Positions 49,233 to 50,938 of a DNA stretch of 64,000 nucleotides are shown piece by piece. The DNA is from Escherichia coli (GTDB taxonomy: Bacteria; Pseudomonadota; Gammaproteobacteria; Enterobacterales; Enterobacteriaceae). The stretch is from NCBI RefSeq assembly GCF_041886205.1, contig NZ_CP169029.1; one strand, given 5' to 3'. Under the pieces are notes generated by a model, which was not told the DNA's origin, searched no databases, and saw only the letters and a program-made list of their open reading frames with translations. The translations under genes and the position numbers were made by a program. Numbering within the stretch: position 1 is the stretch's first letter; every line of letters begins with the position of its first letter.

Positions 49233-50915
49233 TTATAGGGAATTCAAGATATCTATGTTTGGAAGCTCCACGCAGTAGCAGCCGGTGCGGTGGCTCTCTA
49301 TGCCCGCCCTGTCTTTCATCCGTTTGCCCGTCAACATAAAGGTATAACCATCCAGTGTATTTCTGGCCCGTTTCTTACTCGTGTGGTTTATCGTTTTACC
49401 TTTTGCGTTTGCATAGCCACCCATAATGCCCAGGGTAAAGTCACCCAGTTTTTCAGCGTGGTATTTATAAATGTCCCCTCCAAGTTGATTGATAAATTGA
49501 TTGGTTGTTGTTTTATTTTGCCCATCACTAAGCTTACCAGAGGTTCTTCCGCCCGTAATCTTCATCCACACAGATGCAGACTCAGGCTGTGTATTATCAC
49601 TCACGGCACTGAATTGCTTACGCTCATTCAAATCCATGAGGAACAGTGAGTTAGCCAGTGCCATATTGGTAGCATAACTTCCGTTCTCCGGTCTGTATTG
49701 CCGGGTATCAGATGTGGGAAGATGACTGGTTAAATACCATCCCTTATTATCTGTCCCACTCACGTTTCCTTTCTGCAGTGTGTAATCATAAGCTCCGGCA
49801 ACCACGCGGTTCTTCAGAGAGAATTCTGCATCAGAATTTCCCTCTATAGAAATAATATTAATACCCTCTCTCGTCTGACCACCACTGCCACCTTCATTGA
49901 CATAAACGATGTCACTTTGACCAGAGGTATTACCTTTCACCACCAGACGATCCGTAAGAGAATTATCTCCTTCAAGCACACCACCAAGAGAAATAACACT
50001 ACCCGGTGTCCCGGTATAATTTGCCACGGTAAGAGTATTACCTGTACTTTCTTTTGTAGGATTCAGAATGATATTTTTGTTATTAACAAGACTGCCATTC
50101 ACAGTAGCAGAGAGCAGCTTTGCCGTACCAAAGCTTAAGTCAGCATCATTCGTAATATTCCCGTTTATAATGCTGTTATTAATGACAACGTTTCCATTGT
50201 TATTAACCGAACCATTAATTGTTGCCTGGTCTGAGATGTTTATATAGGCATTCTGGCTGACAGCCATATCTGCATTGACTACTGCAGAACCCAATATAAT
50301 CCCACCATTTTTAACGTTAACCCCCCTCGCCTGTGTCAATGTACCTTCATAAGACATGAATCCTGAGTTATCTTTGATAAGAGCACCATTCCCTGACAAC
50401 TCTGTATTAAAATCATAATCGCCAGCAAGATTGAGAATGAAATCGCCATCATTCTTAATTTTTGCTCCGGCTACAATACCATCAGTATTGATTGTGGTTG
50501 TTCCGTCAAGAGCGTCCCCCTCATCGATTCTTAAACGACCAGCGGAGTTTACGGTTGTATCGGTTGCTGTACCGCCTGATGTTACAGCCAGAAGGCCCCC
50601 GTTCTCTAATACAACATTTGATTTTTGAGTCAGTATATCTGTCAGAGTGCGCGCACCTGCGGAACCCCGACTCTGGTTCCAGGCCCGGCGTATTTCGCTA
50701 TACAACCTGACTCGCGCCGGATCAATGGTATCGCGCCGCTTCTGCCAGTACCGGTAACTGCTGCGATGTACGTCCAGAGCAGCACAAAGGCTGACAACCG
50801 TGTAGCTGCCGCTCAGTCTGGTAACTATCGTAAACCGTTCAGCGAGTCGGACATCAAGAGCGAGGTAGCCTTTTTTAATCTCGTATTGGCACTGTGTGCC
50901 AGTATTGAAATCCAC
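49233..50915 (-). pseudogene. Chimeric remnant: IS3-family transposase fragment (N-terminal ~95 codons) fused in frame to a truncated autotransporter passenger with incomplete beta-domain
   Basis: N-terminus has a transposase HTH-like segment ([23 protein letters not shown]); the rest is paralogous to the 41799..47219 autotransporter but lacks signal peptide and most of the barrel. Confidence 0.7.
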
Positions 50916-50938
50916 GAAATAACTTACTTACCAAGTTT

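Follow-up and report, generated by a model that had tools for sequence, protein, structure and literature searches.

The best described relatives of the locus analysed here are the AIDA-I adhesin and the insertion sequence ISEc31. AIDA-I, with its genes aidA and aah, is known from E. coli 2787 and from plasmids of porcine ETEC and STEC. Its passenger is built of imperfect 19-residue repeats, to which the heptosyltransferase Aah attaches heptose. A type Va autotransporter depends on a Sec signal at its N-terminus and an entire barrel at its C-terminus, and adhesion by AIDA-I also requires glycosylation by Aah, whose gene lies directly upstream (review PMC6555100). The length of AIDA-I differs between alleles: the protein of strain GF4-3 has 1,195 aa, that encoded by the ETEC1730 plasmid has 1,399 aa and that of plasmid p48B2a about 1,307 aa.

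In this work, we analysed a 64,000-nucleotide stretch of E. coli contig NZ_CP169029.1 (the window), where a piece of an IS3-family transposase gene is joined in frame to a piece of aidA. Judged by its sequence, the chimeric frame is very probably a non-functional pseudogene, the residue of a decayed chromosomal aah-aidA module that would once have stood between hipA and an MFS/cellulase accessory block. A preliminary description of this DNA had already noticed a remnant next to the accessory block, and the frame does lie there, as an apparently non-functional leftover at the block edge. The reference for comparison was the corresponding locus of the GF4-3 chromosome (NZ_CP053258.1, aah-aidA portion 588148-592910), designated L004. 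The relevant features are the following.

41799-47219, plus strand: intact autotransporter of the ECSE_1600 family, 1,806 aa (Pfam, NCBIfam, annotation)
49102-49221, no strand assigned: hipA 3′-flanking element, about 115 bp (similarity; also at L005 1243-1359 and L008 6205-6322)
49233-50915, minus strand: chimeric frame of 560 codons, running from the IS3 fragment through the aidA remnant into a read-through tail (ORF listing)
49233-49343, minus strand: tail of the chimeric frame, 36 codons and the stop (BLAST against GF4-3)
49283-49343, plus strand: scrap of the 5′ end of a "chromate transporter" gene (91-92% identity to MIN14, E1654 annotation)
49344-49349: junction A, with imperfect microhomology, AT within ATTACC/ATAACC, 2-6 bp (BLAST, junction alignment)
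49344-50622, minus strand: aidA (AIDA-I) remnant, codons 563-988 of the 1,195-codon GF4-3 allele (nucleotide identity, domains)
50622-50623: junction B, flush, without microhomology (BLAST, junction alignment)
50623-50888, minus strand: internal fragment of an ISEc31-like IS3-family transposase gene, codons 10-97 of the chimeric frame (nucleotide and amino acid similarity)
50939-52354, minus strand: MFS transporter gene directly upstream of the chimeric frame (ORF listing, annotation)

Composition of the chimeric reading frame

In the ORF listing, the 560-aa frame 49233-50915 begins with a GTG start codon, and an in-frame stop stands six codons 5′ of it, within 50916-50938, the untranslated spacer that separates the frame from the stop codon of the MFS gene (50939-50941). 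The span first given for the frame, 49233-50938, was right as to the frame itself and its end at 49233, but its upper limit lies 23 nt past the GTG start at 50915. No Shine-Dalgarno-like sequence was found 5′ of the GTG, and a promoter and terminator scan of 48900-51200 returned sites no more numerous than in shuffled sequence. Because no terminator-like site was found between the MFS gene and the chimeric frame, any transcription of the latter would most likely be read-through from this upstream gene on the same strand. In strain CP52E, RefSeq splits the frame into an IS3 pseudogene and a CDS of 470 aa named [quoted passage not shown]. The latter (WP_244461985.1, window 49233-50645) has a CTG start inside the IS3-derived part, overlaps the IS3 pseudogene feature and is annotated as a normal 470-aa CDS without a pseudogene flag; the start assigned to the remnant by RefSeq varies between genomes (470 vs. 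466 aa).

About 95 N-terminal residues had been described as transposase-like, with a switch to autotransporter sequence at that point. This proved close to the actual arrangement, in which the IS3-like part takes up 97 codons (tblastn against ISEc31, E 1e-45) and the switch falls in codon 98, which spans 50623/50622, two of its bases belonging to the IS3 fragment and the third to aidA. In the same tblastn comparison, residues 10-97 and the ISEc31 transposase share 79% identity; residues 23-96 match positions 86-160 of the 369 in the NCBIfam model transpos_IS3 (E 1.4e-12), and the underlying DNA (50623-50888) shows 85-86% identity to ISEc31 copies over 266 nt. The fragment corresponds to approximately nt 285-553 of ISEc31 orfAB in the authentic transposase frame, and both of its ends lie inside the ISEc31 coding region (L007 2001 and 2269 of the CDS 1337-2553). 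In the first 97 residues Pfam gave only helix-turn-helix matches, all of them sub-threshold, so that the assignment to IS3 was settled by NCBIfam and tblastn, and no rve/DDE catalytic domain was matched in the fragment; terminal inverted repeats and a target-site duplication are absent, neither end being an IS end. Since both the rve/DDE region and the inverted repeats are missing, the fragment is predicted to be unable to transpose.

The autotransporter part of the frame clearly descends from aidA. When 49344-50622 was compared by megablast with 5,426 complete E. coli genomes, it was 99.2-99.8% identical to the chromosomal aidA of GF4-3 and 96-98% identical to the plasmid aidA of porcine ETEC, one plasmid comparison giving 97.3% nucleotide identity. 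In the BLAST alignment with the GF4-3 chromosomal allele, only 3 mismatches in 1,279 nt were observed (99.77% identity). The remnant has a GC content of 42.5% and carries no extra stops or frameshifts over 427 aidA codons, which fits a recent origin but would also be expected under selection. What it retains is the last AIDA repeat or repeats, the passenger end, the autochaperone domain, the linker and approximately the first 76 residues of the beta-domain. In the NCBIfam model auto_AIDA-I (NF033176), residues 97-532 match positions 654-1089 of 1,287 with 937 bits (E 1e-281). Pfam recognized AIDA at 99-141, AC_1 at 275-380 and Pertactin; the TIGR04415 repeat was matched once (99-131), the Pfam AIDA domain occurs in one stretch vs. 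eight in the intact GF4-3 protein, and TIGR01414 is covered at positions 2-249 of 432.

Checked as a possible complete and functional member of its family, the frame was found incomplete: its 937 bits remain below the curated AIDA-I cut-off of 1200, as befits a frame that is not full length, and neither ESPR nor the Autotransporter beta-domain (PF03797) gave a Pfam match at E≤0.01. When projected onto the AIDA-I transport unit (PDB 4MEE), the frame covers chain residues 23-269 of 469, with about 200 barrel residues missing. The matches to transpos_IS3 and auto_AIDA-I, which far exceed chance, together with the partial coverage of 4MEE and the lack of PF03797, bear out the preliminary description insofar as it saw here an in-frame chimera of an IS3-family transposase and a truncated autotransporter that ends after part of the beta-barrel. 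Beyond this point the frame runs into sequence that is not of autotransporter origin: the tail DNA (49343-49236) corresponds to GF4-3 DNA lying 149-259 nt past the aidA stop codon. The chromate transporter scrap, which is antisense to the tail, is longer in GF4-3 (L004 1891-2101).

The remnant had also been taken for a paralogue of the autotransporter upstream of hipBA, and this holds at the family level only, the two proteins sharing 30.8% amino acid identity over 448 residues and the parent being aidA. The neighbouring ECSE_1600-family protein (41799-47219) has an ESPR and a full beta-domain, and the frame scored 128 bits with the NCBIfam ECSE_1600 model vs. 937 bits with that of AIDA-I. A recent paralogue of this neighbour was rejected on the same grounds (30.8% amino acid identity vs. 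99.8% nucleotide identity to aidA). In strain ET201 the ECSE_1600-family autotransporter is annotated as frameshifted; we take this gene to be yneO/ydeK, presumably a split pseudogene in K-12.

The intact locus of GF4-3 and the two deletions

In GF4-3 the order of genes at this site is hipA, aidA, aah, IS3 fragment and MFS transporter. The hipA side comprises lsrK, the ECSE_1600 autotransporter, hipB and hipA, and the MFS side comprises the MFS transporter, a cellulase-family hydrolase, a LacI regulator and tcuR. The AIDA-I protein of this strain (1,195 aa) possesses ESPR (1-28), eight AIDA stretches, AC_1 (739-844) and the beta-domain (913-1172), and the heptosyltransferase gene aah (L004 5751-6911) encodes a product with the domains TibC_1st and Glyco_transf_9. 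At least 80% of the segment carrying aah and the 5′ half of aidA (the deletion-B segment, see below) was found in 27 complete genomes, on the chromosome in GF4-3 alone and on a plasmid in the other 26. No complete E. coli genome of the collection other than GF4-3 has a chromosomal aah-aidA that looks intact. The GF4-3 counterpart of the IS3 fragment spans 407 bp and is annotated as an "IS3 family transposase" pseudogene with a frameshift and an internal stop; it is internally deleted, truncated at the 5′ side beside the MFS gene and devoid of both ends.

By BLAST, the window falls into three blocks collinear with GF4-3: 47400-49349 corresponds to L004 59-2006, 49344-50622 to L004 2773-4051 (99.77%) and 50623-52500 to L004 7341-9218 (99.89%). 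In other words, the window is the GF4-3 layout minus two deletions, of 766 bp and 3,289 bp. Lost with deletion A (L004 2007-2772) were the final 207 codons of aidA, its stop codon and, beyond it, 142 nt of 3′ flank. Deletion B (L004 4052-7340) took nt 1-1685 of aidA (codons 1-562), the 14-nt spacer, the whole of aah with the 217 bp that precede it, and a 212-bp part of the IS3 fragment; aah lies wholly within this deletion, and the collinear CP52E region has no such gene annotated. Both the 3′ deletion and the loss of aah were overlooked in the preliminary description. The remnant is nearly identical to an intact aidA of this very locus and collinear with it in both flanks, which marks it as a pseudogene descended from such an allele.

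The preliminary description went further and regarded the fusion as the mark of an old, IS-mediated rearrangement, and on both counts the comparison with GF4-3 speaks otherwise. In GF4-3 the IS3 piece is already an internal fragment, and L004 7216-7605 matches ISEc31 continuously across the site where junction B was formed. Junction B itself is flush and cuts the transposase in the middle of its reading frame, with no IS terminus or target duplication there, and neither deletion breakpoint coincides with an IS end. As to age, 3 differences in 1,279 nt from the intact allele, with no extra stops or frameshifts, suggest that the fusion is a recent event. The proposal that an IS3 element long ago inserted into, or rearranged, a duplicate of an ECSE_1600-type autotransporter to give the transposase-autotransporter fusion is therefore very improbable and already largely refuted. 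It does account for a fusion that is real and in frame, both autotransporters are of type Va with AC_1/pertactin-like regions, and IS debris flanks aah-aidA modules everywhere; yet the identity of 30.8% (amino acids) to the neighbour vs. 99.8% (nucleotides) to aidA names a different parent, the IS3 piece lacks both ends and in GF4-3 is kept apart from aidA by aah, the breakpoint is internal to the transposase frame with no IS terminus, and a divergence of 0.2% from the intact allele is not that of an old event. An IS could have stood briefly at junction B and then been lost without trace.

The direction of change was considered as well, since the remnant might be the older state, with GF4-3 having regained aah-aidA by recombination with a plasmid copy. 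Plasmid modules 95-96% identical to that of GF4-3 do exist. However, the GF4-3 sequence is unbroken across both breakpoints, with an intact aidA frame and a continuous ISEc31 match, and the two stretches of L004 that border the shared module, 2007-2128 and 7129-7340, the latter collinear with ISEc31, are absent from the AIDA plasmids examined. Moreover, in the retained 1,279 nt GF4-3 is 99.8% like the remnant, and the plasmid alleles are only 96-97% like GF4-3. Such a reversal is thus extremely unlikely, and it is the state of the window that was derived by deletion rather than that of GF4-3 by repair.

Taken together, the data suggest the following course for the decay of the module by two deletions. 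The ancestral state would have been an intact layout of the GF4-3 type, as indicated by the one intact example and by collinearity. Deletion A removed most of the 12-strand barrel and extended into the aidA 3′ flank; deletion B removed the promoter-proximal half of aidA with the signal peptide and nearly all repeats, aah, and that part of the IS3 fragment which lay closer to it. Both were most probably illegitimate joins independent of RecA and of transposase; catalysis by a transposase appears excluded, given that the breakpoint falls within the coding sequence of an IS piece reduced to an internal fragment beforehand. Two authentic reading frames are joined in phase, presumably by a one-in-three accident. 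The product, if made, would stay in the cytoplasm without adhesin function, since it has no Sec signal peptide, lacks about two thirds of the barrel and is left without Aah; its N-terminus is transposase sequence, and a signal-peptide hydropathy scan of the frame was uninformative by itself. Thereafter the remnant would have been inherited within one E. coli lineage, with erosion still going on. No intermediate genome with a single one of the two deletions was found.

Carriers of the remnant and the hipA flank

Four independent complete genomes contain both junction strings, TTGCCCGTCAACATAAAGGTATAACCATCCAGTGTATTTCTGGCCC and TCTCTAATACAACATTTGATTTTTGAGTCAGTATATCTGT, without any change, namely those of CP52E from a human in Thailand, LHM10-1 from a pig in China, wlxctx60 from a bear in Japan and VE-T9 from Vietnam. 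An assembly artefact was rejected in view of this recurrence. CP52E is collinear with the window over 39900-64000 at 99.8-99.9% identity. The remnant of LHM10-1 has suffered an additional internal deletion of 292 bp, ET201 retains junction B alone and XJ5.2 junction A alone, the rest of the remnant in the latter two strains having disappeared through insertion of IS1/IS5 and the losses that went with it. In public databases the 560-aa product is found unchanged as EKI53591.1 (E. coli N1) and on 91 contigs; its 90% protein cluster has 88 members, many of them shorter.

These data bear on the alternative that the chimera works as a new gene, such as one for a cytoplasmic protein that combines a transposase helix-turn-helix with a beta-helical domain. 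A frame open across 560 codons, its exact recurrence on 91 contigs and its position downstream of a same-strand MFS gene with no terminator-like site between them could be read in this sense. Nevertheless, a frame with no convincing ribosome-binding site and with annotated starts that disagree, whose last 36 codons stem from unrelated flank DNA partly antisense to a gene scrap, makes a poor candidate; the carriers show independent further deletions and IS truncations, and their near identity reflects recency, not constraint. We consider a new gene hardly credible and retain the non-functional pseudogene as the preferred reading.

The MFS/cellulase block (50939-53490) is present in 6 of the 5,426 complete genomes, and in all six its neighbours are the IS3 fragment and aidA, the latter either intact or reduced to a remnant; the block may have come together with the aah-aidA module. 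The module common to chromosome and plasmids corresponds to L004 2129-7128 and is 95-96% identical to that of plasmid p48B2a. IS elements flank it wherever it is found, and on plasmids another element of the IS3 family adjoins the same boundary on the aah side; the plasmid IS3 elements beside aah were compared with the window fragment as possible copies of one element, and this was rejected on the sequences. Plausibly, IS elements took part in the earlier arrival of the module and not in making the chimeric frame. Elsewhere in the window, at approximately 60600-62350 (CP52E annotation, L015 10609-12343), a full IS3 stands between a truncated fimA-like gene and a fimbrial usher of which the C-terminal fragment is left, with ydeS/ydeR/ydeQ downstream, and this looks like a true IS-associated deletion in a ydeT-type fimbrial operon. 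Just before this IS3 there is a helix-turn-helix pseudogene, presumably yneL-like.

On the other side of the remnant lies the element of about 115 bp. About 1,000 of the 5,426 E. coli genomes have it once, next to hipA, on chromosomes without aidA, and its first 33 bp are present in nearly all of the 5,426. About ten AIDA plasmids carry the same element approximately 270 bp downstream of aidA, collinear, with the same spacing and 84% identical. Rfam searches of the whole window and of 48950-49450 gave no match in or beside the chimeric frame, so the element is not a known RNA; the gathering-score matches returned for the window, unrelated to the frame, were the Hfq-binding sRNA STnc560 (13980-14193, 282 bits) and IS009 (2386-2584, 221 bits). 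The element may be a footprint of exchange between the hipA site and AIDA plasmids. More broadly, one might tentatively see in the hipA-adjacent site the source of the plasmid AIDA-I module or a site that exchanges with AIDA plasmids, a proposal we hold to be possible but rather doubtful. If it is true, GF4-3 preserves the chromosomal form of an otherwise plasmid-borne virulence module, and the window shows the decay of that module. Homology to the window breaks off repeatedly at 49125-49134: similarity ends at 49134 in K-12-type strains, and in wlxctx60, VE-T9 and XJ5.2 the hipBA side gives way from 49125 on to unrelated sequence (an ABC-three-component system, IS30 or IS5).

Comparison with known systems

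Biologically the locus is of small import, since what has decayed here is a well-known adhesin gene. The sequence has already been deposited, though as an ordinary CDS, and a degraded known adhesin gene beside a degraded IS is of a familiar kind. Only two points are new, and these mildly so, namely the chromosomal aah-aidA at the hipA locus and the element of about 115 bp in its flank; our literature searches found no paper tying AIDA-I to the hipA locus. On the practical side, users of RefSeq should treat the entry [quoted passage not shown] as a pseudogene. PCR or read-mapping screens directed at the 3′ half of aidA could call strains with the remnant AIDA-I positive, and in spite of such a result these strains cannot be expected to make the adhesin. 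The locus also offers a clean series from the intact gene through the remnant to further-eroded remnants, and the rare chromosomal aah-aidA of GF4-3 may help to trace the movement of the AIDA-I module between chromosome and plasmids.

The comparison with the described systems can be put as follows. With ISEc31, the fragment shares the transposase frame, 86% of its nucleotides and 79% of its amino acids, but it amounts to about 266 nt of an element of roughly 1.2-1.3 kb and has neither the catalytic region nor the inverted repeats. The ECSE_1600 autotransporter resembles the parent of the remnant in being of type Va, in its AC_1 autochaperone and beta-barrel and in its place beside hipBA; at 30.8% identity over 448 aa, however, it is a distant family relative. 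With AIDA-I, the domain order is the same over the retained part. In contrast to AIDA-I, the remnant keeps codons 563-988 of 1,195, with about 29% of the beta-domain and almost no adhesin repeats, and it has neither the extended signal peptide nor aah. It is, moreover, chromosomal and located beside hipA, whereas 26 of the 27 complete genomes that possess the deleted segment carry it on plasmids.
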